Source: a virus (Duplodnaviria; Caudoviricetes). From it: DNA of 56,622 nt. Every line of letters starts with the position of its first letter. The stretch's first letter is position 1. Of the stretch, positions 239-54,379 are shown piece after piece. Position numbers and translations under genes: made by a program. The notes beneath the pieces were generated by a model. That model saw only the letters and a list, made by a program, of their open reading frames with translations, was not told the origin of the DNA and did no database searches. The stretch is taken from positions 1 to 56,622 of the IMG/VR virus record IMGVR_UViG_3300043399_000099; one strand, 5' to 3'.

Positions 239-239
239 C

Positions 240-605
240 TTATCCAATCGGAATAAAAGTTTCAGTTACAGTACAGGCAGCATCCAGCCTCATTGCGCTG
301 TTGCTTGTAGCCTTAACTTTTACAGTATCCCCCGGCTGCAATACAAGAGTTGCTCCTGTAAAAAGGATAAACTCCCCAATGGAAATATTCTTTCCACCAA
401 GGAGGTGGCAGATTTCACCATCTGTTGCAGTAGTCCAAGTCACATCAATAGAAGGACTGTCTGTCACACCAACAAGAAGAAGCATGGTCATTTCAGCTAC
501 ACAGTTTGCAGGACAAGTATAGAGAGTGTAGTTAGTCCCACTTACTGTGCAGCTTATATGTAGACTTCTTGATCTAGCTGGTTTACCCTGAGATACAAGT
601 GTCAT
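240..605 (-). CDS. Hypothetical beta-rich protein, probable virion component
   Basis: 121 aa; LYTCPAN and LVLQPGDTVKV motifs; tightly packed in the late operon. Confidence 0.7.
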   Translation of the reverse strand: MTLVSQGKPARSRSLHISCTVSGTNYTLYTCPANCVAEMTMLLLVGVTDSPSIDVTWTTATDGEICHLLGGKNISIGEFILFTGATLVLQPGDTVKVKATSNSAMRLDAACTVTETFIPIG

Positions 606-608
606 TAG

Positions 609-1088
609 TTACCCTTTGTACTTAGAAAATCCACCGCCAGAGAGAATATCCCCCAGTTTTTGGAAAGGATTCTTTGCAGTGGGCTTTGTGGTAGTTTTAG
701 TGATAGCGGTTACTTTTGGTCTATTGGCTGCACGACTCTTTTCACGAGCAGCTTTAGCATCTGCCTTAGCTTTCTCCATCATGCTCATCTTAGGTGCTAC
801 CTTACCAGCAACACTACGAGATGCACCACTCAAGCTTGGAGCAGCTTTCTGACCAGAGATTTCTGCAGCTTTAGCAGGACGTTTTGCAGCAGAAGAAACT
901 TTAGGTATAGCACCTGAGGCTGAGTTTAGTCCAGCAGGTTTAGCTTTTGGTTTTGTCCCTGTAGCTGAGGCAGCTTGCTTTTTATCATCAGCTCTATCTG
1001 TAGAGTAAGACTTACCTTGCCACATGAAGGTTTTACCAGCACCTTTCTCTTTACGAGCAGCAGCGAAGGCTTCCTTAAATGTTGCCAT
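609..1088 (-). CDS. Basic Lys/Ala-rich protein with N-terminal FKEAFAAAR...GKTFxWxGKxYST motif
   Basis: 159 aa ORF in the late operon; motif recurrent in aquatic phage proteins. Confidence 0.75.
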   Translation of the reverse strand: MATFKEAFAAARKEKGAGKTFMWQGKSYSTDRADDKKQAASATGTKPKAKPAGLNSASGAIPKVSSAAKRPAKAAEISGQKAAPSLSGASRSVAGKVAPKMSMMEKAKADAKAAREKSRAANRPKVTAITKTTTKPTAKNPFQKLGDILSGGGFSKYKG

Positions 1089-1090
1089 AA

Positions 1091-1321
1091 TTACTTCTTA
1101 CCCTTCTTAGCCATACCCTTGGCTTTGGCCATGCCACCTTTAGCCATACCCATAGGCTTCTCTGCCATACCACCATATGCCATACCTTTAGTTTTAGCCA
1201 TACCACCTTTAGCCATACCAGTCTTAGGTAGCATGATTGGGGTGCCGGGTTTCTTTGGCATAGGGATAGGCTTCTTCGAGATAGGTGCAGGCTTCTTTGG
1301 CATTGGAGTAGGTTTAATCAT
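1091..1321 (-). CDS. Low-complexity basic protein with PMPKK and GMAxGG repeats
   Basis: 76 aa; 2-nt gaps to both neighbours. Confidence 0.7.
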   Translation of the reverse strand: MIKPTPMPKKPAPISKKPIPMPKKPGTPIMLPKTGMAKGGMAKTKGMAYGGMAEKPMGMAKGGMAKAKGMAKKGKK

Positions 1322-1323
1322 AA

Positions 1324-1506
1324 TTATTTCTTCCCTTTGATTTTGCCAGCTTCACTTAAAGCTATGGCGATTGCTTGTTTCCGACTCTTTACAACTCGTG
1401 CTTTCTTTGGCCCCTTAGGGTCAACACCAGAGTGTAACTTTTTATCCTTGAACTCACCTAGAACCTTGGCGATCTTGGCTTGTGCTTTGGTGGGTTTCTT
1501 AGCCAT
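1324..1506 (-). CDS. Small basic protein, DUF6496-like
   Basis: KIAKVLGEFK..KLHSG...VKSRKQAIAIALSEA motif. Confidence 0.75.
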   Translation of the reverse strand: MAKKPTKAQAKIAKVLGEFKDKKLHSGVDPKGPKKARVVKSRKQAIAIALSEAGKIKGKK

Positions 1507-1886
1507 TAGGATTTCTTTCTAAACTTAGCTGTCTTAGCTGCGATAGCCTTGGGCTGCTTTACAAACTGTTTACCTGCTGCAGTTCCAGCACGTTTTGCTT
1601 TAGTGGTAGCAGCATACTCAGAATCGGAAAGAGCTTCCCTAGCTTTCTTTGGGAGATAGCGTTCACCTGTCTTGTTGGAAGGCTTACCACTCTTTGTACC
1701 CCAGTCCTCTTTAGTCCACTTAGTCATAGACTTTTGAGCTTTGGTTTTCTCACCAGTGTACTTTCCACCAGCATCTTTATAGAGCTTACCTGCAAGTTGC
1801 ATTGCTCTGGCAGAATGTTCTCCACCCATCTTAGCTTTGGCCTTAGCCTTAGACTTTTCCCAGAGGGCTTCGTTAGTCCTGCCCAT
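1506..1886 (-). CDS. Basic protein, DUF5872-like
   Basis: SARAMQLA..YK.AGG.Y...W.KEDW.T....GERYLP motif. Confidence 0.75.
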   Translation of the reverse strand: MGRTNEALWEKSKAKAKAKMGGEHSARAMQLAGKLYKDAGGKYTGEKTKAQKSMTKWTKEDWGTKSGKPSNKTGERYLPKKAREALSDSEYAATTKAKRAGTAAGKQFVKQPKAIAAKTAKFRKKS

Positions 1887-1888
1887 AG

Positions 1889-2287
1889 TTAATCTTCTTC
1901 TTCTTCTTCGTATTCAGCCATAGGATCATTGCTTTCCCATGCTTGGCATACACGTAGGTTGTGGCAGATAAAGTCAAACTTCTTGCAGTAGCCACGGCCA
2001 CCACCAGTTGCATCAAACTCGTTGAAAGGAATCTGTTCCAAAGCTTTGAGCATCTTTGGGGTATCCACGAAGTATTCGCAGTTAGCACAAAGTTGGCGAC
2101 GAGCTTGTTTCTCCTCGATGTTCCAGACCTTAGCGATCTCAGACCAGAAGGGTGCGTTATCTCCGGGCTTCTCAGAGCCTTCTTCAGGCCCAAGCGTCCA
2201 GTATTCCGCAAGCCATTTGGTAATCTCAAGATTCTCTTTAGCTGTTGGAATCTCTTCAGTTGGAATCATCAGTCCAAGCATTGTCAT
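1889..2287 (-). CDS. Cys-rich protein with HiPIP-like Cys spacing
   Basis: CANCEYF...GYCKKF...C....CQAW. Confidence 0.65.
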   Translation of the reverse strand: MTMLGLMIPTEEIPTAKENLEITKWLAEYWTLGPEEGSEKPGDNAPFWSEIAKVWNIEEKQARRQLCANCEYFVDTPKMLKALEQIPFNEFDATGGGRGYCKKFDFICHNLRVCQAWESNDPMAEYEEEEED

Positions 2288-2332
2288 TTAACCTTATTTA
2301 TATTAAAAGCTTCTATTACCACTTAAGTCAAC

Positions 2333-2626
2333 TCACCACTTCACTCGGTGACTCCAGAATTTTGCAGATAGCTTGGTCGTTGGCTTACCTTGAGCGTTAT
2401 GTCTAGCATAGTAGCTCTTTTTTCTTGCTTTATCCTCAGCAGATTTAGGATTATCCCCTGCACCTACCACACCTTGTTGTCCAAAACGTACAAGTTTGTA
2501 CTTTTCGCCCTCTTTAGCCATCACAACATGAGATTTAGTGGGGTGAGAAGGGGTTTTCTTGGGTTTATTTACACCAGATACGCCTATTTCCGCCATTTTA
2601 TTTTTGATACGAGGTGGGACAGCCAT
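2333..2626 (-). CDS. Conserved basic phage protein
   Basis: GVSGVNKPKKTPSHPTKSHVV...RFGQQG...SYYARH...SAKFWS. Confidence 0.75.
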   Translation of the reverse strand: MAVPPRIKNKMAEIGVSGVNKPKKTPSHPTKSHVVMAKEGEKYKLVRFGQQGVVGAGDNPKSAEDKARKKSYYARHNAQGKPTTKLSAKFWSHRVKW

Positions 2627-2973
2627 AGATAAATCCTATTTCCGATGTATTGTGGTGTTGGTAGTACCCATGCTATCATCAACATTACGATAAGCCACGG
2701 GGAAGTCTCGTTGATTACAACATTTTCAACAGATTCAGTCTTAACCCTGTTATCTTGTGCTTGAATCTGCTCAACTCTATTGCTATGACCCTCAATCTTA
2801 TCAATCTTTTGATCACCACTAGTCTCTGACGTACCTATCGTTTGGGTTGCTACCTTAGCCACTTGAGTATTAGCTGCTACGTTTGGCCCCGCCCCCGTCA
2901 GGAGCTTCATTGGTAGGCTGCTGCAACTGCTTAGCCCAACTATCAAGACCAAAGGCAGCACCAAGGAACGCAA
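2584..2973 (-). CDS. Putative unimolecular spanin (lipoprotein with C-terminal TM segment); TTG start at 2973 inferred
   Basis: Hydrophobic stretch plus lipobox LSSC; C-terminal PWLIVMLMIAWVLP; directly after the holin and endolysin. Confidence 0.6.
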   Translation of the reverse strand: MRSLVLPLVLIVGLSSCSSLPMKLLTGAGPNVAANTQVAKVATQTIGTSETSGDQKIDKIEGHSNRVEQIQAQDNRVKTESVENVVINETSPWLIVMLMIAWVLPTPQYIGNRIYLWLSHLVSKIKWRK

Positions 2974-3079
2974 AGATAGGCCACACAAGGATTTCGACAA
3001 TGTTAGCATCCTTCACCTCAACGACATAAGCCAGCCAGATCAGAAGGGCTACGGCAACTTCTCTCTTGTAGGTCTTCAC
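2870..3079 (-). CDS. Putative holin
   Basis: 69 aa, two hydrophobic segments, in the lysis cassette. Confidence 0.65.
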   Translation of the reverse strand: MKTYKREVAVALLIWLAYVVEVKDANIVEILVWPIFAFLGAAFGLDSWAKQLQQPTNEAPDGGGAKRSS

Positions 3080-3312
3080 TTGATCAGTCCACCATTGATG
3101 ACCCAGACAACTGCAGCAGATATAAATCCTCCAACAACAAACAGTAGTGACTTGTCACGAAGTTCGGTTCTACGCTTCTCCGATGCACTCATATTCTCCA
3201 CTGTCTTATTCAGAACAGCGATAGTCAGATTGAGTTCATTGATGGTTGCACAGAGTCTGGCAATTTCTTCTTCCAGTCTCTCAACTCGCCTAAGCGTATC
3301 TTCCTCGGCCAT
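3076..3312 (-). CDS. Coiled-coil protein with C-terminal TM segment (XhlA/holin-like)
   Basis: Heptad N-terminus, hydrophobic C-terminus; adjacent to the endolysin. Confidence 0.6.
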   Translation of the reverse strand: MAEEDTLRRVERLEEEIARLCATINELNLTIAVLNKTVENMSASEKRRTELRDKSLLFVVGGFISAAVVWVINGGLIK

Positions 3313-3719
3313 TACTTATAGACCTTTGCAGATAGTTGATGATGGGGTGCATCCCAGCCCCAGTCCCATCCATGTTCCATCTCAATGTCTAAGTCTTTGG
3401 CAGCTTGCTTCATAGCTTCATAGATTGGCTTGTACGCATCCCAGTCATCTGAGTTAGGGATACCATCAACATCATGATCCCCTTTGTAGGGATGTGGGTG
3501 TAGGTCTACAGCATGGCCAGTAAGGTGACGAGAGTTCATGGTACGAGAAGCACCACTGGCTACCAGCCGCTTCTGACGCTCTAGGCTACGCACACCTTCA
3601 CCAACTGTAAAGTCTTGAGTGGTAGTTGTGATAGCCTTCTCGACCACCTTAATGAGATCAGCGTGGACACCCTTAAGGTTCTCTCTGGATTTTGCCCCAA
3701 GACTAAAGCTCATTCCCAT
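3312..3719 (-). CDS. Endolysin, peptidase M15 family (L-Ala-D-Glu peptidase-like)
   Basis: EGVRS..RQ...SRHLTGHAVD and DAPH motifs. Confidence 0.9.
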   Translation of the reverse strand: MGMSFSLGAKSRENLKGVHADLIKVVEKAITTTTQDFTVGEGVRSLERQKRLVASGASRTMNSRHLTGHAVDLHPHPYKGDHDVDGIPNSDDWDAYKPIYEAMKQAAKDLDIEMEHGWDWGWDAPHHQLSAKVYK

Positions 3720-3952
3720 TCCCTTTTTCGTTCTGGTTCAAAGACATCTCGTTTCTTAAGATGCCCTTCAAGATACATTGCTCTCTCAACTCTATCCAAA
3801 CTATACCTAACGCCAGTAGCTTGATGAATCGCTTCTCGAACATAGAACACATCAGAACGAGGGATGTGTACCCGTTGTAGAACCTTTTCGTCACCAGCAG
3901 CAAGTGCCTTGTAGAACTGACCTAGTACGTCTTCATCTGAGAAATACTTCAT
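3710..3952 (-). CDS. Hypothetical protein, probably translated from a leaderless mRNA
   Basis: 80 aa; ATG 5 nt after a TATAAC box; no SD. Confidence 0.7.
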   Translation of the reverse strand: MKYFSDEDVLGQFYKALAAGDEKVLQRVHIPRSDVFYVREAIHQATGVRYSLDRVERAMYLEGHLKKRDVFEPERKREWE

Positions 3953-3955
3953 CCG

Positions 3956-3986
3956 TAGTTATACTCCAAGTGTCTCCATAGTCAAG
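3956..3986 (-). promoter_or_regulatory. Late-arm promoter CTTGAC-N17-TATAAC
   Basis: Same boxes, spacing and AGTATAACTA as the capsid promoter at 47259-47289. Confidence 0.7.
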
Positions 3987-4049
3987 CTTTATCTTGAATG
4001 AACGACAATACAAATTATTTTCTAGAGGGTACTTGAAATTTGCTTTCTC

Positions 4050-4257
4050 CTACCTACGTATATACTTAATGATATACATGATGTTCTACCTCATGCTTCC
4101 TTATGTTTTTCCTATATTTATATATAAGAATAAGTAATACTTAAGGTATCATTATGAAAGCATAAGGTAGCTTAGGGTAGCTTAAGGTACCTTTATGAGT
4201 ACCTTATGTCTCTCATGATGTATCTCATCATGTATCTCTTTAAGTATACTTAAGTAA
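4050..4257. repeat. AT-rich iteron-like region (CTTAAG, TACTTAAGTA, CATGATG repeats); candidate origin
   Basis: Non-coding; many short imperfect repeats. Confidence 0.55.
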
Positions 4258-4284
4258 AATACCCGCGATCCACCCTTTTGTCAA
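4256..4284 (-). promoter_or_regulatory. Sigma70-like promoter TTGACA-N17-TATTTT
   Basis: Consensus -35 with 17-nt spacer, pointing toward the late arm. Confidence 0.6.
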
Positions 4285-4828
4285 TACCCTATTTCAAATA
4301 AATTAGAAGAAATGTACTAGGCTTCCCATGTGGGACTCTTCGAGATTGACTTAAGGAAGGTTCTGCGGGAGATACCTAAGCTTTGACCTTGGTGAATCAC
4401 CCGCCATCTGGTGTACAGCCCTAAGATAGCTAAAAGCGCCACGGAGAGAGTTGCCAGATGGGGTCTAATGGTTTTTGTAGGTGAGGGTAGCCGAGACATC
4501 TAGAGGCTCTGTAGGGTGCCTCCTAGGGCTTCTACAACTGTGGTGTCAGGATACCGTGTATGTGTGGATCATACTGGTGTTAACCATGTGACCTCTTTCT
4601 GGTTAACACTTATTGGTTTCCCTAATTTCTGGCAGAGTGTGTATACGCTAACGTGACACCCCCGTATGGCCCATGCCCGCCCCCCTGATCCGCCCGGATA
4701 GGCATAGGTACAGGGCTTCGCCCCAGAATGTTTGTCTTCGGGATGCCAACACATTGATTTTCAACAACAAAATACAGAATGAATCTTTATGCTTTACCGA
4801 AGGTAGGGGAGTTTTTGGTGGGGTTTCC

Positions 4829-4907
4829 CACATCATGCCGCAATGCAGCGAAAGCATGAACGTCATCATGCCATCATCATGTCATCATCATGCCAGCATC
4901 ATCATGT
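4829..4907. repeat. (CAT)n / CATCATG short repeat tract
   Basis: About 5 copies of CATCATG in 80 bp. Confidence 0.85.
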
Positions 4908-4987
4908 TCGCTTTTCCTTGCGCATTATGCTCGCCAAAAGATTGCCGTCTCACAGCTCCCCTTTTCGTCCCCTCTCCCTTTAGGGAG

Positions 4988-5012
4988 GATATGTCGGATC
5001 GTCCGACAGGTC
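4988..5012. promoter_or_regulatory. Early-region palindrome, copy 1
   Basis: GATA-TGTCGGA-TCG-TCCGACA-GGTC. Confidence 0.85.
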
Positions 5013-5047
5013 AGCCTTTTGGCCCACTACCTTCGGTAAAATAGGGC

Positions 5048-5080
5048 TTGACAGCGGTTTCGTTTTGAGGTTTTGTTAAT
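5048..5080 (+). promoter_or_regulatory. Probable early sigma70 promoter
   Basis: TTGACA at 5048; weak -10; upstream of the first + strand gene. Confidence 0.45.
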
Positions 5081-5134
5081 AGGCCAAGTCGGCAAATCAC
5101 TTGAAACACCCCAAAGGGGAAACGGAGAAAAATC

Positions 5135-5722
5135 ATGGCTAACATTGCTAACGTAGTTATCGCTTCGGATTCTGTCGTTATGGTCGGCAAGAAAAAATTC
5201 ACCCTTGATGCAGCGGTCAAGCATGCCGTTGCCGTCTATGATGCCATGTGGTTGCTTCAAGAGAAGCAGTTGGGTCACTACAAGGAAATCGGGGAAATCC
5301 TCCTAGGATTGCAAAGCCTGTTTGGCGACAACAAGGTTGCCTTCGGCAAGTATCTTGAGGGTTCTGACCTTGGTCAGATGTCACGTCAGGATCGTTCAGA
5401 TGCCATGTTCCTCGCCGCAAACTGGACTAAAGTCCAGCAAATGAACAAAAGCGGTGCATTGGATACTCTTGGAGTATCGGCAATCCGTAAGCGTCTCAAA
5501 GCTGCCGAAGGCAAAGGTTCCAATGGGGCTGGAAAGCGGAAAGAGGATCAGGCCGTATCCCCTAAAGGGGAAACCGAAGGTGATGCAGCCCCTAAGGCAA
5601 AGCCTTTGGCTGTACAGAACGAGGCTGAATTGGCCGCTATGGTGATGCAGATTATCGTAGATAATAAGTTCAACATGACTGTGTTTGCCAAGGCTCTGGC
5701 AGAACTGCGGAAGGGGGCGTAA
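5135..5722 (+). CDS. First early protein; possible DUF3102/ParB-like HTH DNA-binding protein
   Basis: SD GGAG; EIGEIL...AFGKYL...SRQDRSDAMFLA pattern resembles DUF3102. ORF certain, function tentative. Confidence 0.6.
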   Translation: MANIANVVIASDSVVMVGKKKFTLDAAVKHAVAVYDAMWLLQEKQLGHYKEIGEILLGLQSLFGDNKVAFGKYLEGSDLGQMSRQDRSDAMFLAANWTKVQQMNKSGALDTLGVSAIRKRLKAAEGKGSNGAGKRKEDQAVSPKGETEGDAAPKAKPLAVQNEAELAAMVMQIIVDNKFNMTVFAKALAELRKGA

Positions 5723-5727
5723 GCCCC
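5714..5727 (+). terminator. GC hairpin at the end of the first early gene
   Basis: GGGGC-GTAA-GCCCC; no clear U-tract. Confidence 0.35.
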
Positions 5728-5799
5728 CCACTACCTCACCCACATCATAGCACTGCATTAACCCCTACGGGGGTTTTTGTCGTTAGTGCAAAGCACTAG

Positions 5800-5824
5800 G
5801 ATATGTCGGACGATCCGACAGATA
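5800..5824. promoter_or_regulatory. Early-region palindrome, copy 2
   Basis: GATA-TGTCGGA-CGA-TCCGACA-GATA. Confidence 0.85.
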
Positions 5825-5857
5825 GCATCCCCTTTAGGGGATAGATTGGAGAACGAT

Positions 5858-5929
5858 ATGCGATACTGGATGCTTGCCCTAGCGGCATATGGCTTGTGCC
5901 TCACCCTTGCCTATGCGTTAATGACATGA
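5858..5929 (+). CDS. 23-aa hydrophobic micropeptide MRYWMLALAAYGLCLTLAYALMT
   Basis: SD GGAG 6 nt upstream; ATGA overlap with the next ORF; not in the ORF track. Confidence 0.55.
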   Translation: MRYWMLALAAYGLCLTLAYALMT

Positions 5930-6135
5930 TGCACAGGCGTGACCGTATGGCGCAGCGCGCTGACAAGTGGTGGCGTAGCGTGTGGCATATGCAGATGTGT
6001 ATGTCCGCGCGTGGCCCAGTGACGAGTCCCAAAACCTTGACAGACGGGGCAGATCATGCCAATGTCATTGGACTAAAGCGAAACCAGACCAGATATGTCG
6101 GACGATCCGACAGGTCGAACCAACAGGAGGAATGA
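5926..6135 (+). CDS. Hypothetical protein (uncertain)
   Basis: ATGA coupling to the upstream peptide, but spans a promoter and a palindrome. Confidence 0.35.
   Translation: MMHRRDRMAQRADKWWRSVWHMQMCMSARGPVTSPKTLTDGADHANVIGLKRNQTRYVGRSDRSNQQEE
6037..6065 (+). promoter_or_regulatory. Early promoter TTGACA-N17-CAATGT
   Basis: Consensus -35; TG extension before -10. Confidence 0.55.
6092..6116. promoter_or_regulatory. Early-region palindrome, copy 3
   Basis: GATA-TGTCGGA-CGA-TCCGACA-GGTC. Confidence 0.85.
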
Positions 6136-6136
6136 T

Positions 6137-6409
6137 ATGTGGAATGTAGTTATGGCAAAGGTGTGGATGTCGTTTGTGTGTCTTGAGTGGGAGCGTGAGT
6201 GCAATGGCATTATGCAGCACCTGAGTGTGTCGTTGTATAATGATGGGCCTATGGCTGTGCGTGTGACCTGCACCACTCCCGTCAAGGCTGACGAGTCCCG
6301 CTTCAAGCGCACCTTTGAGATGGGTGAGATGGCCCGCCGCTACCTCAAGGATGACGAGTCCCTTGATGACCTGTTCAACCACGTATTCTTTAACGGAAAG
6401 GATTGCTAA
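6137..6409 (+). CDS. Hypothetical early protein
   Basis: SD AGGAGG before ATG 6137. Confidence 0.75.
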   Translation: MWNVVMAKVWMSFVCLEWERECNGIMQHLSVSLYNDGPMAVRVTCTTPVKADESRFKRTFEMGEMARRYLKDDESLDDLFNHVFFNGKDC

Positions 6410-6410
6410 G

Positions 6411-6683
6411 ATGCTGATCACGATGAAATCCCAGATGACTGGTGTGATCCACACCAAGGACATCAGCATGACCCAAGACCAGTATGATGACTGGCTGATG
6501 GGTGCTGACCTGATCCAAGATGCCCTGCCCCACCTGTCTGACAGTGAGCGTGAGTTCCTGATGACGGGGATCACTGACGAGGAGTGGGATTCTTTAGCGG
6601 ATTCCCTCACGCTGGATGATGACTATGATGGGTGGGATCACGAGGATGACCCGTCAGAGGATGATATGCTTTGGACTACCTAA
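6411..6683 (+). CDS. Conserved acidic phage protein
   Basis: SD AAGGA; LIQDALPHLS..EREFLMTGIT.EEW motif. Confidence 0.75.
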   Translation: MLITMKSQMTGVIHTKDISMTQDQYDDWLMGADLIQDALPHLSDSEREFLMTGITDEEWDSLADSLTLDDDYDGWDHEDDPSEDDMLWTT

Positions 6684-6695
6684 CTGGTTGAAAGA

Positions 6696-6731
6696 TTATT
6701 GCACCTCAGGCTAATGCTTGGGGTGTGATGA
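6696..6731 (+). other. 16-bp RNA hairpin with G-U pairs (RNase III-site-like)
   Basis: TTATTGCACCTCAGGC-TAAT-GCTTGGGGTGTGATGA. Confidence 0.6.
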
Positions 6732-6744
6732 TAAGGCAACCAAG

Positions 6745-6769
6745 GATATGTCGGACAGTCCGACAGATA
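6745..6769. promoter_or_regulatory. Early-region palindrome, copy 4
   Basis: GATA-TGTCGGA-CAG-TCCGACA-GATA, abutting the SD of the 6780 gene. Confidence 0.85.
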
Positions 6770-6779
6770 GGAGAACACG

Positions 6780-7208
6780 ATGGACTACTTGAGCAAGACA
6801 ACACCCCTGTACACCAGTGAAGTGAATGGGTGGACGAATGTGTACCGCCATGATGAGGTGGAGTGGGATGATGGTCGTCCCTATGGACAGGCTTGCTGCC
6901 AGTTGCTGAGGCATACGGCTGATGAGCCTGCTACATGGTGGACAGTGGGCGTGTACACGCAGTATAGGCAGTATGGTGGGCCTGAAGAAGGCGGCTGGTA
7001 CTATGATGCTGGTGACATAACATGGCATGGTGCGATGAAGTTCTTCGACAACTATGATGAGGCTGAGGCTTATCGTGATAAGTTGTGGGATTCTGTTGAG
7101 AAAGAGAACGTCAAGGAACGTGGGGCTGAGGTGCGTCTGACTGTGCGCTGCACCACTGAGTCTATGCCTGACACGCACTACCCCAAGACACGACCCTACT
7201 ACAGCTAA
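6780..7208 (+). CDS. Conserved hypothetical phage protein
   Basis: SD AGGAG; YGGPEEGGWYYD motif. Confidence 0.8.
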   Translation: MDYLSKTTPLYTSEVNGWTNVYRHDEVEWDDGRPYGQACCQLLRHTADEPATWWTVGVYTQYRQYGGPEEGGWYYDAGDITWHGAMKFFDNYDEAEAYRDKLWDSVEKENVKERGAEVRLTVRCTTESMPDTHYPKTRPYYS

Positions 7209-7212
7209 ACCA

Positions 7213-7247
7213 TTGACAGGTGTGGTTCCTTGGGCTACACCTGTTGA
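7213..7247 (+). other. 16-bp RNA hairpin with G-U pairs (RNase III-site-like)
   Basis: TTGACAGGTGTGGTTC-CTT-GGGCTACACCTGTTGA. Confidence 0.6.
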
Positions 7248-7269
7248 ACCGAAACATGAGGAGACTGAC

Positions 7270-7860
7270 ATGACAACGACAGTACGTAACATCCTGAAGG
7301 TGTACAGGATGGCAACAGAGGCAGAGGTTCTGCATGGCACATCATGGTATGTCCAAGCACAGGCTCAGGCACAGGCTATGGCTGACTACCATCAGGTTCC
7401 CCTGCGTGTAGTTGTGGGTGTGATTGCCGCCCTGTCACCCAACAATAAGTGGGAGCGCAACACCAAGGATGCTGACACTATGATCTCTGCATTCCTGCGT
7501 GGTGATCCCGTTGACGTGTGCCGCCCATCCACCTACACAAAGATGCGTGACAAGGCGTGGCTGATCATTGCCTCTATGCCTGACACTGATGAGGAAGTGA
7601 TGAGCCTACTTAATGGGCAGAAGATTGTGTCCTTCTTCAAGAACATCATGGGCTATGACACTGTGACTATTGATGGTCATGCCTACAACATCGCTCGTTA
7701 CAAGCGAGTGACCTTGACAGATGACGAGACTAACATTAACAAGTCGGTCTATCTGGAGATGCAGGAAGCCTACCAACGTGCTGCAAAGCGAGTGGGCTTG
7801 AAGGTTTACCAGTTGCAGGCTATCACATGGGTAGTCTGGAAACGCATTCACAACATCTAA
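7270..7860 (+). CDS. Conserved phage protein, possibly HhH-GPD glycosylase-like fold
   Basis: SD GAGGAG; G.SWY, AALSP..KWERN, VTIDGHA, QAITW motifs. Confidence 0.65.
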   Translation: MTTTVRNILKVYRMATEAEVLHGTSWYVQAQAQAQAMADYHQVPLRVVVGVIAALSPNNKWERNTKDADTMISAFLRGDPVDVCRPSTYTKMRDKAWLIIASMPDTDEEVMSLLNGQKIVSFFKNIMGYDTVTIDGHAYNIARYKRVTLTDDETNINKSVYLEMQEAYQRAAKRVGLKVYQLQAITWVVWKRIHNI

Positions 7861-7875
7861 TCAGGAGCAACACAG

Positions 7876-8094
7876 ATGTTTATTATCTTCGCAACCAAGC
7901 CACTGAACGACCGCACACAGGGGTTCCGCTTCAACATCATGGGCCAGAAGGGTCTGACCCGTAAGCGTAAGCACAAGCGTATCCAGTGGGGCATCAAGCA
8001 TCAGGACTGCATGACCTCCATCCACATGGGAAAGCGTAGCGTGTACTTTGAACACAACGCCACCATCCGTAAGCTGTGGCACTTCGCTGGTTAA
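7876..8094 (+). CDS. Basic hypothetical protein
   Basis: SD AGGAG; 72 aa. Confidence 0.75.
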   Translation: MFIIFATKPLNDRTQGFRFNIMGQKGLTRKRKHKRIQWGIKHQDCMTSIHMGKRSVYFEHNATIRKLWHFAG

Positions 8095-8100
8095 TCTAAT

Positions 8101-8130
8101 GGTCACACTAGGCTTAGGCTTGGTGTGACT
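8101..8130 (+). other. 13-bp RNA hairpin related in sequence to the 6696 hairpin
   Basis: GGTCACACTAGGC-TTAG-GCTTGGTGTGACT. Confidence 0.6.
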
Positions 8131-8157
8131 CTGTAGGTAAATCAAACAGGAGAGATT

Positions 8158-8182
8158 GATATGACGGATCGTCCGACAGATA
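8158..8182. promoter_or_regulatory. Early-region palindrome, copy 5 (one mismatch), overlapping a start codon
   Basis: GATA-TGACGGA-TCG-TCCGACA-GATA. Confidence 0.8.
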
Positions 8183-8301
8183 AGCTGCAACTAAAGTTAC
8201 TAGAGATGTGTGAGAAGCTGCTGCCCAAGACGAGTGAGCATGGTAATCAGGCACTCATCACACTACTCAAAGACATACGCAAACAACTGGAGGGTAAATG
8301 A
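8161..8301 (+). CDS. 46-aa hypothetical protein MTDRPTDKLQ...
   Basis: SD AGGAG; ATGA overlap with the next gene; not in the ORF track. Confidence 0.65.
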   Translation: MTDRPTDKLQLKLLEMCEKLLPKTSEHGNQALITLLKDIRKQLEGK

Positions 8302-8525
8302 TTAAGCGTATTCATGTGAACCAGCACACCATCAGGGCAAACAACACGGCAGACGAGAAGCTGCCGCCCCTGTCAGTCAAGACCTACAACAGCAACACGC
8401 TGTGCTATGAGGTGACTGTGCTTGGGCCTAGCAAGATCGTGTACAGCCCAGACAAACCCCTGTCGTGTGGTGCTAAGGTGTGGATAGAAACAGAGGCAGA
8501 GGTTCTGATGGTGACAACGCAATGA
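8298..8525 (+). CDS. Conserved phage protein
   Basis: IHVNQH.IR.N...PLSCGA.VWIET motif. Confidence 0.8.
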   Translation: MIKRIHVNQHTIRANNTADEKLPPLSVKTYNSNTLCYEVTVLGPSKIVYSPDKPLSCGAKVWIETEAEVLMVTTQ

Positions 8526-8920
8526 TACCGAGTGACACACCATCAGGCAGGGACAACTGTGGCATTGTGTCTGTTGCTATGCTTGCTGGCCTATCATATG
8601 CTGAGACTGAGCGTATGTTCATGGACTTGTTCAACAAGTCAGACTACACATCTATCTGGGACAGGATGGAAGTGATACACCTGATTGGCTTGACAGTCCT
8701 TGAGGAAAAGCACTACAAGTTTAAGCCGACACTAAAGAACTGGCTGACCACAACATACAACCCAGCACATGACTACCATGTGTCTATGTTAGGACACGCT
8801 GTCACAATACGGGATCACTTGTTGTTCGATCAGGTGTTTACATCAGGTGTGCCAGCACTACAGTCACCATTCACCCGTAAGCGTATCACTGCTTACATTA
8901 AACTGAGGAGAAAGAAATGA
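8522..8920 (+). CDS. Hypothetical protein, possible papain-like (C39-type) Cys peptidase
   Basis: NCG..S.AM and GHAV motifs; ATGA coupling. Confidence 0.55.
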   Translation: MIPSDTPSGRDNCGIVSVAMLAGLSYAETERMFMDLFNKSDYTSIWDRMEVIHLIGLTVLEEKHYKFKPTLKNWLTTTYNPAHDYHVSMLGHAVTIRDHLLFDQVFTSGVPALQSPFTRKRITAYIKLRRKK

Positions 8921-9123
8921 TTGCGTATAAGAATCTGGATGACATCTGCGAGGGTGTGTCTGTGTGGTCTTTGATGAATGACGAGGGCCATGCTAAGCTA
9001 AAAAAATGTATTAAGGTATATTGGGACGCATACTATGACCCGCCTGAGGGTGTGGTTGGTGTGGGCAGGATCACATACGCAGAGCAACAGCTAGTGCTGG
9101 CACAAGAGGTGAAACAACTATGA
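8917..9123 (+). CDS. Hypothetical protein
   Basis: SD GAGGAG; ATGA coupling. Confidence 0.7.
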   Translation: MIAYKNLDDICEGVSVWSLMNDEGHAKLKKCIKVYWDAYYDPPEGVVGVGRITYAEQQLVLAQEVKQL

Positions 9124-9287
9124 TCTATGAGGAAACAGAACACTTGACAGCACTTGATGCTAAGTCTAAGGGTGAAGCATTCAAGACCGCTTGGGGGTGG
9201 GGTTACGATCCTACCTATCAGGTATACTACAACGCAACAGATGAAGTGTGGGTGTGCCGCACTAGCAGATACTCTAGCTGTGATTAG
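9120..9287 (+). CDS. 55-aa hypothetical protein MIYEETEH...RYSSCD
   Basis: SD GAGGTG; ATGA coupling; not in the ORF track. Confidence 0.65.
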   Translation: MIYEETEHLTALDAKSKGEAFKTAWGWGYDPTYQVYYNATDEVWVCRTSRYSSCD

Positions 9288-9296
9288 GAGATAGAT

Positions 9297-9695
9297 ATGA
9301 CATTGCATAATCTGACAGACCTAGCTAACGTATTGCGTGGGTTGGATAAGTATGATCCTCTCGATGGTGAGGGTTTTGACATGCGCAATGACTGGATCAC
9401 CAGAAAGGAAACAGAACATTCTTGCGGTTCAGCCTGTTGCATTGGCGGATGGGTTCAACATCACAATCCAGAAACTTTTAGGGATCAATTGGGGGTAGTG
9501 GGTGCTGTGGCTACACTACTACCTATGAGTGTGGACAAGGATGATATTATCTGGGATGAACTGAATGAACTTTGCTACCCTACCTACCTTGAGGCATGGG
9601 ATGCGACACCACAACAGGCAGCACGTGCAGTAGAAATCCTTCGTGATACTGGCAAGTGTGATTGGGAACGTGCAATGAGTGAGGAAACAAAATGA
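9297..9695 (+). CDS. Hypothetical protein with CGSACCIGGW motif
   Basis: SD AGGAG; motif common in phage accessory proteins. Confidence 0.75.
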   Translation: MTLHNLTDLANVLRGLDKYDPLDGEGFDMRNDWITRKETEHSCGSACCIGGWVQHHNPETFRDQLGVVGAVATLLPMSVDKDDIIWDELNELCYPTYLEAWDATPQQAARAVEILRDTGKCDWERAMSEETK

Positions 9696-10072
9696 ATACT
9701 TATGACTTTGGTAATGGCCCTGTAGCTGCACATAAGCACCCTAATGGTGGCGGATGGGTAGCTGATAGTGCTAAGGTATATGGTAATGCTGTAGTATCTG
9801 GTAATGCTGTAGTATATGGTAATGCTGTAGTATCTGGTAATGCTGTAGTATCTGGTAATGCTGTAGTATCTGGTAATGCTTGGGTATATGGTGATGCTGT
9901 AGTATATGGTGATGCTGTAGTATCTGGTAATGCTGTAGTATCTGGTAATGCTGTAGTATTTGGTTATGCTAAAGTATATGGTGATGCTGAGGTATATGGT
10001 GATGCTTGGGTATATGGTAATGCTGTAGTATCTGGTAATGCTAGGGTATATGAAGGGGAGATTACGGAATGA
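9692..10072 (+). CDS. Hexapeptide-repeat (left-handed beta-helix) protein
   Basis: About 16 repeats of A(V/K/W)V(S/Y)G(N/D). Confidence 0.85.
   Translation: MNTYDFGNGPVAAHKHPNGGGWVADSAKVYGNAVVSGNAVVYGNAVVSGNAVVSGNAVVSGNAWVYGDAVVYGDAVVSGNAVVSGNAVVFGYAKVYGDAEVYGDAWVYGNAVVSGNARVYEGEITE
9768..10050 (+). repeat. 18-bp tandem repeat array GGTAATGCTGTAGTATCT
   Basis: Directly visible in the sequence. Confidence 0.95.
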
Positions 10073-10212
10073 AATACCTACAGATGTTCACATACTACAT
10101 GGTTGTAGTGGCGATTGTTATTCACCATATCCCATTCCTGCGGGCAAGTTTTGAGGTTCAAACTGACTACTACTATAAGACCATGGCAGAGGAGATGGGG
10201 TTGTGGGAATGA
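10069..10212 (+). CDS. 47-aa small membrane protein
   Basis: SD GGGGAG; hydrophobic N-terminus; ATGA coupling. Confidence 0.6.
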   Translation: MKYLQMFTYYMVVVAIVIHHIPFLRASFEVQTDYYYKTMAEEMGLWE

Positions 10213-10255
10213 TTAGCTTAGCAACTGCCCTAAAATAATAATGAAAGGATAAACA

Positions 10256-10591
10256 ATGGCTTTTTATATGTGGGATCAAAACAACTCTGGTGGAAGTTTT
10301 GTTGTAAATAAGAACCTTTCACATCGCGTTGTAATTGAAGCTAAGAATAAAAAGGAAGCGGAAAGTAAAGCATCTTACTTTGGTATCTATTATGATGGAG
10401 TAGAAGAAGGTATTGATTGTGAATGTTGTGGTGATCGCTGGTACAGAGATTCTTATGAACTTGATTGTGAGGGTATGGACACTTATCTACAAAACCTAGC
10501 TGATGAATATGGTTGGGAAGACCCTGACATTATTGTACACTACCTTGACGGAACTAAAAAGACTTTTACTGGCAAGGGGTACAAGAAGTGA
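10256..10591 (+). CDS. Conserved phage protein
   Basis: SD AAGGA; QNNSGGSF...GIYYDG...DCECCGDRW motif. Confidence 0.8.
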   Translation: MAFYMWDQNNSGGSFVVNKNLSHRVVIEAKNKKEAESKASYFGIYYDGVEEGIDCECCGDRWYRDSYELDCEGMDTYLQNLADEYGWEDPDIIVHYLDGTKKTFTGKGYKK

Positions 10592-10950
10592 TAACCCTAG
10601 CAACCTTATGCCTTGCGGCTAACATCTACTTCGAAGCAAGAGGTGAGCCGCTTGATGGGCAAATCCTAGTGGCCGAGGTCACATTGAATATCGCTGGTGA
10701 AGATGGTGACATTTGTGCAACTGTCTTTGAAGAAGGAGAATTTAGCTGGACGAATGACAAGAACTTGGTTATAGAAGAACCAGAGGCGTTCAGTGAAGCG
10801 TTTGCTTTGGCACAGGAAATCCTTGAGAAAGGTTGCATCCTATGCACTAAGGCTACCAACTTCCACACTAGGAATACTGAACCTTACTGGGCTAAACACA
10901 TGACGTTTGTAGGTGCTTATGGTAATCACCTATTCTACAAGGAAGAATAA
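10588..10950 (+). CDS. Cell wall hydrolase, SleB/Hydrolase_2 family
   Basis: CLAANIYFEARGEP, FSW and GNHLFY motifs. Confidence 0.85.
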   Translation: MITLATLCLAANIYFEARGEPLDGQILVAEVTLNIAGEDGDICATVFEEGEFSWTNDKNLVIEEPEAFSEAFALAQEILEKGCILCTKATNFHTRNTEPYWAKHMTFVGAYGNHLFYKEE

Positions 10951-10954
10951 CACC

Positions 10955-10984
10955 TTGACTAAAGAATAACTATAGGTTAACAGT
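10955..10984 (+). promoter_or_regulatory. Probable promoter for the tRNA/rII unit
   Basis: TTGACT-N17-TAACAG. Confidence 0.45.
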
Positions 10985-10996
10985 GTTAACCTGATA

Positions 10997-11073
10997 CTGC
11001 CACTAGCTCAACTGGATAGAGCAAAAGCCTTCTAAGCTTTAGGTTCCGTGTTCGAATCACGGGTGGCAGGCCA
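10997..11073 (+). tRNA. trnR: tRNA-Arg (anticodon UCU)
   Basis: Acceptor stem CTGCCAC/GTGGCAG, D-arm GCTC/GAGC, anticodon loop CTTCTAA, TTCGAAT loop, encoded CCA. Confidence 0.95.
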
Positions 11074-11093
11074 ACACATTCATGGAGTAGATC

Positions 11094-13043
11094 ATGCAGA
11101 CGAACACTAATCTCCGTGTGGTTGAGAACAACAGCCACGCTACTAAAGACTTCACCATCCAAGCATCGGGCAAGATGTTCCACATGGTTATCTCTGGCCT
11201 GTACTCTAACAAGCCACAGTCAATCACACGTGAGATTTGGTCAAATGCTTTTGATGCACACGCAATGGTGGGCAAACAGGACACACCCTTCGAGGTGACA
11301 TTCCCTACCTCACTGACCCCTACGTTCTCATGCCGTGACTTCGGCCCCGGAATTGCACATGAAAACATGGAAGGTTTCTACACTGTGCTTGGTCACTCTA
11401 CCAAAGAGAACACCAACAAAGCAGTGGGTAAGTGGGGCGTAGGCCGTATGTCACCTATGTCATACACAGATACATTCAGTGTGGTCTCTCGTCACAAAGG
11501 GATGATCGCCTACTATTCCATTCAGCTTGGGCCTGATGGATCGCCGCAGCTTCACGTCATGGCCGAGCCTTCGCCTACTAATGAACCAGATGGACTAGAG
11601 GTATCCTTCCCTGTTAAACGTGAGGATATCCCATCCTTCCAACGTGCAGCAGAGATTGTAGCCTATGGGTTCAAAGTTCCACCACGTGTTAAGAACTCGC
11701 AAGACAAACAGTTTCAACCTATTGAGAAAATCATTGAGGGTGAAGGCTATTACTTCTATAGCGACAGCCGTTTGTCTGGCACTTATGCACAGATGGGGTG
11801 TGTACTCTATCCTATCAACACCAACTCCCTACCTCCAGGTTTGCTAAGCTTTAACACCCGCAATATTGTGTTCGAGTTTGACATTGGTGATCTTGAGGTG
11901 ACTGCTTCTCGTGAAGACCTAAGCTATGGTGCGAATGACCCTACCTTGGGTAACATCAAGAAGGTTATCTCTAAGGTAAAAGCTGAGATACTTGGGCAAG
12001 CACAAACAGAAATCGACAAAGAGCCAAGCTTTTATAGGGCAATCAAAAGTATCACCAAATACACACACGCGCTTGGCTCCAATAATTTCTGTTGGAAAGG
12101 TACACCTGTCAAAGAGTTTAAATTAAATCTGGTATATAAAAACTTGGACATTCACGTAGATGGCAAGGGTTGGAGAGCCAACTCCACTATTGGGTTTGGT
12201 AGCAATAGTTTGGCATTACCACACTTAGATTACACTATCTACGTGCAGAATACTTCCGACAAGGTTGCTAATGTACGGGTAGCAAAGCGTATCTCTTCTG
12301 ATCTTAAACCTAATCAAAGCCTGATCTGGGTTAAGGCTGATCTGTCTGAGCCATTGGCAAAGACTAGCCTAGCTGCGCTAATCCATGACCTTGACTACCC
12401 TGTGAAGTATGTCAAAGACCTAGCTGATGATGGGCCAGTGAAGACAGGGACACGCACTAAGTTGTCTGTGAATAGCCTAGATGAAAGCGGGTATCGCCGT
12501 TCTCTGGATATGGACGATGCGATGTTCCAGAATGGTGGCTATTACTTTCCTATGGAAGCTGGGAAATACCCCCAATATCTTATTAACCTTATACCAATGG
12601 TGAGGATTGAACTACAACAGGAAATTATTCTTGTGCCTAAACCTATGTGGAAAAAGTTTGAGTCAGCCCAACAGTGGCAGTTGATTGTACCTAAGTTGGA
12701 CAGACGGATCGCATATCAGGCACGTTTTGCACAGCTAACCCTTGGTAATAAGTATCTTCACTATAAGTATAAAAAACTACGTGGGTTCACCAGTGATACA
12801 GGTATTGTAGGTGAGTTCGCAAAGAAAGCGAATGCCCCCGACAAGTATGAATATTTAGGCTTGCCCCGTGGCACTTGGGATGCTAACTTGCAACGACTTG
12901 GACTACCTATTATCAACGATGATAAGGTGGAGCAAGAGTATAACGTGATCCTTGACAAGTACCCGCTGTTGAAGCTAGATATAAACTTCGACAAACACAT
13001 TACACACTTCCTGCAATACATCAACCTAATCAACAACGCATAA
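11094..13043 (+). CDS. rIIA: rIIA-like protein (N-terminal GHKL/HSP90-type ATPase)
   Basis: LYSNK..SITREIWSNAFDAH, RDFGPG, STK, G.WG.G motifs; followed by rIIB-like gene. Confidence 0.88.
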   Translation: MQTNTNLRVVENNSHATKDFTIQASGKMFHMVISGLYSNKPQSITREIWSNAFDAHAMVGKQDTPFEVTFPTSLTPTFSCRDFGPGIAHENMEGFYTVLGHSTKENTNKAVGKWGVGRMSPMSYTDTFSVVSRHKGMIAYYSIQLGPDGSPQLHVMAEPSPTNEPDGLEVSFPVKREDIPSFQRAAEIVAYGFKVPPRVKNSQDKQFQPIEKIIEGEGYYFYSDSRLSGTYAQMGCVLYPINTNSLPPGLLSFNTRNIVFEFDIGDLEVTASREDLSYGANDPTLGNIKKVISKVKAEILGQAQTEIDKEPSFYRAIKSITKYTHALGSNNFCWKGTPVKEFKLNLVYKNLDIHVDGKGWRANSTIGFGSNSLALPHLDYTIYVQNTSDKVANVRVAKRISSDLKPNQSLIWVKADLSEPLAKTSLAALIHDLDYPVKYVKDLADDGPVKTGTRTKLSVNSLDESGYRRSLDMDDAMFQNGGYYFPMEAGKYPQYLINLIPMVRIELQQEIILVPKPMWKKFESAQQWQLIVPKLDRRIAYQARFAQLTLGNKYLHYKYKKLRGFTSDTGIVGEFAKKANAPDKYEYLGLPRGTWDANLQRLGLPIINDDKVEQEYNVILDKYPLLKLDINFDKHITHFLQYINLINNA

Positions 13044-14239: not shown

Positions 14240-14332
14240 CTTAAGTATTATATTCTTAAGAGATAAATACTTAAGTAATACATAAAGAGATAGAGGGTAG
14301 CACATGATGATGACTTATGCAAGTGCTACCCT
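14227..14332. promoter_or_regulatory. AT-rich iteron-like module plus 10-bp inverted repeat AGGGTAGCAC-N19-GTGCTACCCT
   Basis: Shares 9-12-mers with 4050-4260; immediately upstream of the recombinase. Confidence 0.55.
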
Positions 14333-14349
14333 TACACAAAGGGAACAAC

Positions 14350-15432
14350 ATGAAGTATACAAAGAAGATTACACTAAAGGATGGGTCAACTGTCTATAGG
14401 TTTAGTCCACCAGAAGAAGTTAGGAAGGCTGGTGTAGTTGCATCCAAGACCTTTACGGATGGTAGGGCTGCACGATATGAGATACCTAGACTACTCGAAA
14501 AGGTAGCGGCATATCGTAAAGGATATATCAAAGAGGGTAATGTAGGCCCAACCTCTAAGGTTAAACATATCATCAACTACTACCTACTATCCAAACAGTT
14601 TGCCTCTCTTGCTGGTAGTTCCCAGATCAAGTATGAGGCTGAATTGCTAAAGGTATCAGACATTTGGATGGGTGATGTGTCTGTCAATAAGCTTACTGCC
14701 AAGCTGTGCAACGAGGCATACGAACAGTGGGTGTCTGAACACTCCGTGGCTAGGGCCAATGAACGGGCAAGGCTATTCTCCGTGGTGCTAAACTTCGCAC
14801 GATCCTTGGACTTGATTAACGACAACCCTATGGGTAAGGTCAAGAAACTAAAGCATGAACCCTCTACTCCTATCTGGAAACAAGACCAAGTAGAGTTGTT
14901 CCTTGACACAGCCTTCAAGGATTTCAAGTGGAGAAACGTAGGGCTTCTCGTGATGATGTGCTACGAGTGGGCGCAACGACCTACTGACATCTGCCACCTG
15001 ACATGGGACAAGGTTGATCTGGTGGGTGCTAGGGTATCCATCAAGCAGTCCAAGCGTGGGGCCGAGGTGTTCCTGCCCATTGATGAACCCTTACTTGGGT
15101 TACTTAAGCAACAGCAGGATGATTGGGGCTTCCAAAAGCTAGTGGTTCCACACCATCGTATATCTGACAATGCTTATGTCCCGTTGACACCAGTAACATT
15201 CGGCCCTATACTTCGTTCAATAAAGGTTGCGTGTGGACTACCAGAAGACTTGAAGATTGGTCACTTGCGTAAGACAGCTATCAATGAGTTCGTGGCAGCG
15301 GGCGTTGACAGTACTGGTATCATGCAGGTGACAGGACACAAGAACATTAGCAGCCTCAACCCATACATGAGGCACACATACAATGGTGCTAAGACAGCAC
15401 AGGGTATTCGCAAGGGGAACAAAGATGCCTGA
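14350..15432 (+). CDS. int: Tyrosine recombinase / integrase
   Basis: Catalytic R (AQRPTDI), K (QSK), HLRKT, TGH and Y (LNPY); start at ATG 14350 inferred. Confidence 0.9.
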   Translation: MKYTKKITLKDGSTVYRFSPPEEVRKAGVVASKTFTDGRAARYEIPRLLEKVAAYRKGYIKEGNVGPTSKVKHIINYYLLSKQFASLAGSSQIKYEAELLKVSDIWMGDVSVNKLTAKLCNEAYEQWVSEHSVARANERARLFSVVLNFARSLDLINDNPMGKVKKLKHEPSTPIWKQDQVELFLDTAFKDFKWRNVGLLVMMCYEWAQRPTDICHLTWDKVDLVGARVSIKQSKRGAEVFLPIDEPLLGLLKQQQDDWGFQKLVVPHHRISDNAYVPLTPVTFGPILRSIKVACGLPEDLKIGHLRKTAINEFVAAGVDSTGIMQVTGHKNISSLNPYMRHTYNGAKTAQGIRKGNKDA

Positions 15433-54367: not shown

Positions 54368-54379
54368 TTCCCGTCTAGG

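Follow-up and report, generated by a model that had tools for sequence, protein, structure and literature searches.

A palindrome repeated in the early region of a freshwater HMO-2011-type phage and its probable reader, the first early protein

Why is a short palindrome repeated at the start of the early genes of a phage, and what reads it? The question is raised by IMG/VR virus record IMGVR_UViG_3300043399_000099, a complete virus record of 56,622 bases (CheckV 100%) that was analysed over its whole length and is called the window below. The 17-base palindrome, TGTCGGA-NNN-TCCGACA, has five copies there, and among the relatives of this phage its outer arm bases change in step with a single residue, residue 84, of the first early gene product, a 195-amino-acid protein encoded at 5135-5722 (the 5135 protein). 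Because of this covariation the palindrome is most likely the docking site of the 5135 protein, and, judged from sequence comparison, it is fairly probable that the five palindromes are double-stranded operators for it. We infer that double-stranded DNA is the form read and that the reader is a dimer and, more weakly, that the protein represses rather than activates.

The palindrome and its place in the window

A search of the window with TGTCGGANNNTCCGACA, allowing up to 2 mismatches and using 100 shuffles as control, gave 5 matches against a shuffled mean of 0.07, and 0 of the 100 shuffles gave 5. Four copies are exact (4992, 5804, 6096 and 6749), and the copy at 8162 has one mismatch (left arm TGACGGA). 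The whole record holds no sixth site at one mismatch or fewer, the control read backwards gave 0, and the 8-base inner core CGGA-N3-TCCG occurs in the window at the same five places only. The mismatch search, the whole-record scan and the shuffles thus bear out the original prediction, made from the letters of this DNA, that there are five copies here and none elsewhere. All five lie within 3.2 kb of the 56.6-kb genome. They stand at the start of a block of plus-strand genes that runs from about 5.1 to 30 kb, past an 850-base non-coding stretch that sets the leftward genes apart. The copies are as follows.

4988..5012, plus strand: copy 1, core 4992-5008, centre TCG; ends 39 nucleotides (nt) before the TTGACA box of gene 5135
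5800..5824, plus strand: copy 2, core 5804-5820, centre CGA; after a terminator-like hairpin (5760-5775)
6092..6116, plus strand: copy 3, core 6096-6112, centre CGA; TTGACA box 59 nt upstream, ATG 6137 24 nt downstream
6745..6769, plus strand: copy 4, core 6749-6765, centre CAG; adjoins the Shine-Dalgarno (SD) sequence AGGAG, with ATG 6780 14 nt on
8158..8182, plus strand: copy 5, core 8162-8178, left arm TGACGGA, centre TCG; includes the start codon ATG of an open reading frame (ORF) of 46 codons at 8161-8301

Copy 2 lies 37 nt upstream of a 23-codon ORF (ATG at 5858), copy 4 and its SD sequence form a repeat of about 38 nt that bounds an extra gene cassette in relatives, and the variant copy 5 is also found at the equivalent place in the relative G002. 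In all copies of the window the flanks read ATA-arm...arm-G(A/G)T in a single orientation, with a constant A opposite G next to the arms, followed by 2-3 more complementary positions (T.G in copies 1 and 3). The flanks, the A.G mismatch and the spacer assignments are as first described, with CAG as the centre of copy 4. The positions likewise agree with the description of copies near promoters, abutting an SD sequence or overlapping a start codon, where the promoter boxes are consensus matches.

Conservation, symmetry and covariation with the 5135 protein

Relatives were gathered with a profile of the 5135 protein, which yielded 17 IMG/VR loci and 17 metagenome loci, some of these 34 being one contig filed twice. 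The site is conserved among them: the inner core is found in 34 of the 35 records that encode a homologue (the window and the 34 loci), with 146 copies in total, and in the one record that lacks it (L099) the contig ends within the gene. The original prediction had made itself depend on conservation of the motif in relatives, and on this point it stands. An exact motif scan of IMG/VR found several copies on each of four related contigs, always oriented with the genes, and in each of the complete relatives G006 and G007 (59.1 and 58.9 kb) all five copies fall in a 3.3-kb part of the early region. Among GenBank phage records none has the 5135 protein, and the 8-base core has 0 copies in all five GenBank HMO-2011-type genomes searched (CRP-1, MW202701, CRP-345, HMO-2011 and CRP-13). 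No recurrent hairpin or comparable repeated word was found in CRP-13 (whole record) or CRP-9 (1-12000 and 49000-56157).

Two variations in copy number and placement were observed. In the close relative L109 (2-60) two palindromes lie 39 nt apart at the position of copy 1, and the total is seven copies. In the most distant lineage a copy lies inside the reader gene itself (L102 5435, L104 5435, L098 5276, L100 444, L101 4241), where it falls in the part coding for the disordered linker (peptide ATDGPSD).

The site also has dyad symmetry. Under a pairing model in which a 3-base centre is enclosed by seven pairs, then one unpaired position and then two outer pairs, 94.4% of the cells are paired across 60 distinct 27-mers, compared with 81.9% for shuffled columns (0 of 500 as high) and 25-40% for slid partners. 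Double changes maintain the symmetry, as both sides vary in 4 of the 9 pairs, and the position adjoining each arm is non-complementary in 45 of 55 distinct 25-mers. The centre is 3 bp long in all 146 copies and follows the pattern Y-N-R in 113 of 113 distinct copies (C-N-G 58, T-N-G 36, C-N-A 19, T-N-A 0), its central base being any of the four. The opposite spacers of copies 1 and 5 and copies 2 and 3 had been read as a flip of orientation; this part is not upheld, as the centre in relatives always has this self-complementary pattern. No inversion mechanism is needed, because TCG/CGA and CAG/CTG are permitted variants of a symmetric centre.

Covariation of the site with the protein is seen when the aligned proteins of genomes with TGTCGGA arms are set against those with other arms, where one column discriminates, that of R84. 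The gene is listed here with the half-site table, for which sites were defined by the inner core alone and arm bases 1-3 were scored.

5135..5722, plus strand: first early gene, 195 amino acids (aa), proposed palindrome reader on the basis of covariation, conservation and a predicted helix

R84/S88, 25 loci: TGT 181, TGA 30, CGT 7, CGA 4, TGC 2
R84/A88, 1 locus: TGT 10
R84/T88, 2 loci: TGA 14
K84, 2 loci: AGT 16
F84, 3 loci: TAT 8, CCT 9, TCT 5
T84, 1 locus: TCC 4, CCC 2

In the 34 loci, arm bases 1-3 of both half-sites sort without exception by the residue at position 84 (R, K, F or T), and G stands at position 2 in 224 of 224 half-sites of the R84/S88 loci. Each change at residue 84 or 88 is matched in every site copy of the genome concerned. 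Across 21 distinct R-type proteins 33 columns are invariant, and of these the three F-type, the two K-type and the single T-type protein each deviate at residue 84 only. A tree groups the K, T and F proteins, which are 85-92% identical to one another, in a single young clade (support 94/99), and the same arms are kept among R-type proteins down to 36% identity. Within the F lineage the two half-sites vary independently, often breaking the outer stem. Of 120 database homologues, 89 have R at residue 84, 14 have F, 8 have K and 4 have T, the other 5 falling outside the search pattern.

In the predicted model, the 5135 protein consists of a small N-terminal sheet, a 40-residue helix and a conserved helical domain, followed by a disordered basic linker and, at the C-terminal end, two helices. 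The predicted local distance difference test score (pLDDT) is 72 for the whole protein and 84 for the conserved 64-residue domain (64-127). R84 and S88 open a predicted helix (84-95) that is preceded by a short helix and a turn, with pLDDT 87-92 there; the two residues are one helical turn apart and belong to the most conserved stretch, MSRQDRSDA. Two candidate relationships of the protein were set aside. DUF3102 is the nearest named Atlas cluster (0.93; 29% of members) and is a lead only, as Pfam did not confirm it, and CRP-13 gp01 and CRP-9 gp02 share only 18-20% identity with the 5135 protein.

Operator, hairpin or recombination site

The regulatory features around the copies are the following.

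4754..4786, plus strand: promoter-like conserved block TTGAT ... ACAGAATG, from the alignment of relatives; about 200 nt upstream of copy 1
5048..5053, plus strand: TTGACA box, probable -35 of the gene 5135 promoter; a consensus match preceded by an A-run and invariant in 8 aligned relatives
5760..5780, plus strand: intrinsic-terminator-like hairpin with a T run, after gene 5135, from a sequence scan
6037..6042, plus strand: TTGACA box upstream of copy 3, a consensus match

All 14 loci that contain the first copy have a TTGAC box 30-43 nt downstream of it. Many of the other copies have a TTGAC box 29-62 nt upstream, or lie directly before a ribosome-binding site, and, to judge from the spacing, copies beyond the first appear to leave no room for a promoter downstream of them. 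An SD-preceded start codon lies within 13-38 nt past 37 of 69 copies. Other roles for the repeats did not fit: an extracytoplasmic function (ECF)-type or MotA-type promoter would need a fixed spacing to a -10-like box, and there is none to any such box; replication-origin iterons would not be spread over 3 kb; and leader peptides starting from the ATG inside the motif have frames that stop after 13-17 codons, except at copy 3. Among the sequencing runs with near-identical DNA none was listed as an RNA run; a possible one, X20, contained only short contigs covering 6 of 30 bins.

Several smaller elements were noted in the same region. Upstream of copy 1, the window has a long non-coding stretch (4300-4990) with blocks conserved across relatives, among them a terminator-like hairpin (4792-4808), CATCAT-rich repeats (4860-4905) and, around 4925, a near-palindrome GCAT(T/A)ATGC with a centre that varies by lineage. 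Either a leader or a small RNA is conceivable here. Beside copies 1 and 2 stand small hairpins whose loops are 3-4 nt long (5020-5045, 5783-5797 and 5826-5843); these show compensatory substitutions between relatives (ACC-TTC-GGT vs ATCC..GGAT and ACCC..GGGT; AGTGC-AAA-GCACT vs TGGGC..GCCCA); unlike the palindrome, they behave as structural elements.

In the mechanism that we propose, the 5135 protein would bind as a symmetric dimer in which the helix starting at residue 84 reads each half-site, residue 84 reading bases 1-2 and residue 88 reading base 3. It would be produced from its own terminated transcription unit and would occupy sites a short way ahead of the ribosome-binding sites of the next early genes, as well as one upstream of its own promoter. 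Bound there, it would hold back or stage early transcription by blocking initiation or elongation, with feedback on its own gene, and its analogue would be a Cro-like or immunity repressor with several operators acting partly as roadblocks. The layout suits such a self-feeding regulator blocking the early genes, because gene 5135 has its own unit with a terminator and the copies lie before ribosome-binding sites. Pfam and PHROGs scans of the window ORFs recognised no repressor beside the integrase-bearing gene set, in keeping with the earlier remark that no CI-type repressor is evident. As the phage has an integrase and no recognisable repressor, a role in immunity is possible. Of the first reading in the original prediction, operators for a dimeric phage protein that shuts off early genes, the covariation at residue 84 favours the 5135 protein, a candidate already named there, as that protein, and early shut-off is a part that we infer.

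Several findings weigh against the operator reading. In the lineage of the window the site has a polarity, with A invariably adjoining the left arm and G the right one. TGA half-sites are found 26 times on the left and 9 times on the right, and there is an asymmetry between T-N-G centres (36) and C-N-A centres (19). Most copies are close to an SD sequence, a position that would equally suit an RNA operator, and a sigma-70 promoter scan gave 10 sites vs 12.6 expected, which is not above chance. The independent changes are few, about three at residue 84 and one at residue 88, those at residue 84 because the K, T and F states share one clade, and the R-type protein with A88 also has TGT arms. The protein itself has no match in PHROGs, Pfam, NCBIfam or PDB sequences, Pfam having also been run on 20 members of its family with E up to 10. 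Fold searches of the PDB with the whole model and with domain 64-127 gave Foldseek E values of at least 0.7 and, with VIA, best Z scores of 4.3 (whole model) and 3.8 (domain), with no solved DNA-binding fold matched; in BFVD, where nothing was significant either, the best fold match (E 0.016) has no name attached. A profile of the protein run against 185,579 species genomes gave one spurious low-complexity match (L126) and neither a prophage nor a host. The polarity could also be a by-product of copies having spread, SD sequence included, as direct repeats.

Some of these points are shared by an alternative that we consider unlikely, namely that the palindrome works as an RNA hairpin within the 5' leaders of early transcripts, again with the 5135 protein as its reader; the protein would then repress translation, stabilise the message or antiterminate in the manner of N/nut. 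On this account the purine-purine mismatch beside the arms would open the groove and let residue 84 reach the outer stem pairs. The constant orientation relative to transcription in the lineage of the window, the conserved arm-adjacent mismatch followed by two covarying pairs (AT/AT vs TA/TA), and the SD-preceded start codons past the copies all suit an RNA element, and the covariation of protein and site fits it equally. Copy 1 would be transcribed if the promoter-like block at 4754..4786, about 200 nt upstream, is active, and a terminator is located between copies 1 and 2. The excess of T.G over C.A cells (16 vs 5, from about 6 events vs 2) points the same way and tells against a duplex site.

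Pair counts as such cannot settle between DNA and RNA, because a hairpin and a symmetric duplex site both keep complementary arms, and the two are better separated by what varies. Here the inner stem shows no variation, changes in the outer stem occur solely in step with the protein, and the loop is unconstrained, a pattern that differs from that of a structured RNA and, with its fixed stem sequence and free loop, is the reverse of structural RNA elements. The loop ends are complementary in kind, Y-N-R throughout, and a 3-nt loop needs no such symmetry. Predicted RNA folding ranges from -12.2 to -3.8 kcal/mol among 16 copies folded, and four of these fold no better than shuffles (copy 5 of the window, z -0.25, and copies 1-3 of L091, z -0.2 to -0.6). 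Mid-stem A.A occurs in 13 of 60 distinct copies, the deepest lineage has the flank mismatch as G.G, C.C or C-G before genes on the same strand, and the palindrome has no match in Rfam. On balance we clearly lean towards the duplex reading over the RNA one. The RNA or single-stranded DNA hairpins that the original prediction placed second are thereby disfavoured: the T.G excess speaks for them, and the fixed stem, the free loop and the weak folds speak against.

Further genes of the window enter into the remaining readings.

14317..15432, plus strand: tyrosine integrase, from Pfam/PHROGs; also in G002, G006 and G007
48197-52102, minus strand: 1301-aa virion-module protein with no PHROGs, Pfam, PDB-sequence or Atlas match
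30615-34037, minus strand: 1140-aa virion-module protein with no PHROGs, Pfam or PDB-sequence match

In phage N4, short stems with 3-nt loops are read by the virion RNA polymerase. It is very improbable that the palindromes are likewise single-strand hairpin promoters for an unrecognised phage RNA polymerase, with transcription starting just before each SD sequence. The form would fit, as a 7-bp stem with a 3-nt loop lies 13-38 nt before starts and right after a terminator, and the two large virion-module proteins (1301 and 1140 aa) are without a family. Yet no RNA polymerase, sigma factor or similar protein was recognised among 60 ORFs scanned with Pfam or 32 with PHROGs, the central loop base is variable, and some copies are intragenic or form weak hairpins. 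In addition, the covariation points to a 195-aa early protein, which would not be in place before the first transcription.

The copies do mark places where the early region has been rearranged. Two motif-plus-SD repeats (window 6745-6782) enclose an additional cassette in G003, in L109 and in a contig of run X3; it is about 240-270 nt long and carries a 79-aa ORF. In a contig of run X5 the stretch 6005-6091 is replaced by 84 other letters that end exactly at copy 3. L089 has further breakpoints at 6131 and 6738 and L110 at 5786/5797, and a gene of 124-130 aa with an internal copy in L092 and L095 has 79 aa in G003, where it ends at a copy. As direct repeats of about 25-38 nt, the copies can act as crossover points, so gene cassettes have probably been gained and lost between them by homologous recombination. 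The original prediction had proposed recombination points, possibly worked by the tyrosine recombinase, and had suggested comparing gene gain and loss breakpoints with the copies. They coincide in G003, L109 and the X3 and X5 contigs, with insertions and replacements ending at copies as what would be an evolutionary side effect, and no link to the tyrosine recombinase was found.

That the repeats are chiefly recombination modules shuffling early cassettes, with protein binding secondary or with the tyrosine recombinase acting on them, is for us distinctly improbable. These cassettes and breakpoints speak for it, as does the presence of an integrase in three of the three motif-bearing genomes tested. 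It leaves unexplained, however, that the arm bases follow a single residue of the 5135 protein and that the core stays fixed down to 36% protein identity, and gene borders are places for breakpoints anyway. The element has no promoter or T-run terminator, unlike the composite promoter-early stem-loops (PeSLs) of T4-type phages (PMC2839356). No Y1/HUH transposase family of the type associated with REP elements was found among 60 ORFs scanned with Pfam. Core sites of tyrosine recombinases have two binding arms around a crossover region of 6-8 bp. The centre of the palindrome, at 3 bp in every copy, is shorter than this and differs from core or attC-like sites, which therefore argues against tyrosine-recombinase action.

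Known systems, genome surroundings and meaning

Assuming the operator reading, the systems closest in behaviour are the stoperators of Cluster A mycobacteriophages (L5, Bxb1, Trixie) (PMC6550527; PMC9283540). Both would have one phage protein with many short sites, in short intergenic spaces and mostly outside promoters, that are oriented with transcription (PMC6550527), and in both the site motif and the protein diverge together between relatives, which for stoperators gives different specificities (PMC6550527; PMC9283540). Stoperators are asymmetric 13-bp sites, about 30 of them genome-wide, bound by a two-domain monomer (PMC6550527). The present palindromes do not belong to this class, because stoperators are asymmetric, read by a monomer and genome-wide; here a 17-23-bp palindrome recurs 5-7 times within the early region only, and its presumed reader is an unrelated protein.

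Operators of lambdoid Cro and CI are dyad-symmetric, about 17 bp long with a less constrained centre, and form two tripartite clusters. Shared with these are a regulator gene beside a divergent control region and a specificity that differs between relatives, whereas the copies described here extend over 3 kb before individual genes and membership of the 5135 protein in the helix-turn-helix group is not demonstrable. With dispersed regulators of the KorB/ParB type there is a likeness in palindromes at varied distances from promoters and, in the model, in a predicted helical DNA-binding part and a small helical C-terminal part that are separated by a disordered basic linker. The KorB DNA-binding domain, however, ranked 26 with Z 3.6, which is not significant, and no partition ATPase was seen by Pfam or PHROGs scans of the window ORFs. 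Finally, the PeSLs of T4-type phages are also short repeats among small early genes that bound insertions, deletions and replacements, and each combines a strong sigma-70-like promoter with a terminator stem-loop (PMC2839356). The palindrome differs in having neither promoter hexamers nor a T run and in covarying with a phage protein.

The window phage itself is assigned to the uncultured freshwater podophages of HMO-2011 type, because the capsid proteins of Roseobacter phage CRP-13 and Puniceispirillum phage HMO-2011 share 83% and 70% identity, respectively, with its own and because sequencing runs with near-identical DNA are mainly labelled freshwater. Pfam and PHROGs scans recognised rIIA, rIIB, a tyrosine integrase, ThyX, a primase-helicase and a family A DNA polymerase, together with a Cas4-like nuclease, ribonucleotide reductase, PhoH and a podovirus structural module. 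Megablast of window 4000-12000 against phages gave no match, and the sole match of an Rfam scan was a tRNA.

10997-11073: tRNA-Arg (TCT), just before rIIA

In the relative G002 a sixth palindrome copy lies between a tRNA-like 3' end and rIIA, where the window has none.

Elsewhere in the window, a 403-aa ORF with a PcfJ-like domain (19902-21113) overlaps the start of the DNA polymerase ORF (21031-22908) by about 80 bases; the annotations of CRP-13 and CRP-9 have one polymerase gene of about 650 aa after the primase. The gene at 9692-10072 contains about 14 tandem 18-base repeats (9781-10040), and its product has a match to the YdcK beta-solenoid repeat and a weak one to bactofilin. In the leftward gene block, TTAGCCATACC occurs four times within 100 bases (1107-1209). 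The stretch 4100-4260 is AT-rich with repeated words containing CTTAAG (gcttagggtagcttaaggtacc), and CTTAAG hairpins are found at the equivalent place in the relatives L092, L094 and L095. An origin or a divergent control region may lie here.

HMO-2011-type phages are a dominant aquatic group, and the literature searched, supplements aside, holds no description of a regulator or of a repeated motif in them. In the main comparative paper on this group the words repressor, promoter and palindrome are absent by a term search, and integrases are reported in some subgroups (PMC9038755). The system described here would be of a known kind, a phage regulator with several operators, in which the protein family is unassigned and the recognition table, as compiled from these genomes, appears unusually clean. 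It pairs an orphan early protein with a probable site and provides a natural table in which four residues stand against four operator variants. Possibly, though this fuller picture is somewhat doubtful, the 5135 family is new, perhaps with a new fold, and carries an operator code in residues 84 (R/K/F/T) and 88 (S/T) that would define heteroimmune groups within 85-92% identical lineages of an abundant uncultured freshwater HMO-2011-type clade, with operators doubling as crossover points. If true, this would show how regulatory specificity changes via one residue while 5-7 sites are rewritten, would supply a small orthogonal set of protein-operator pairs and would explain where the early gene cassettes of these phages are exchanged.

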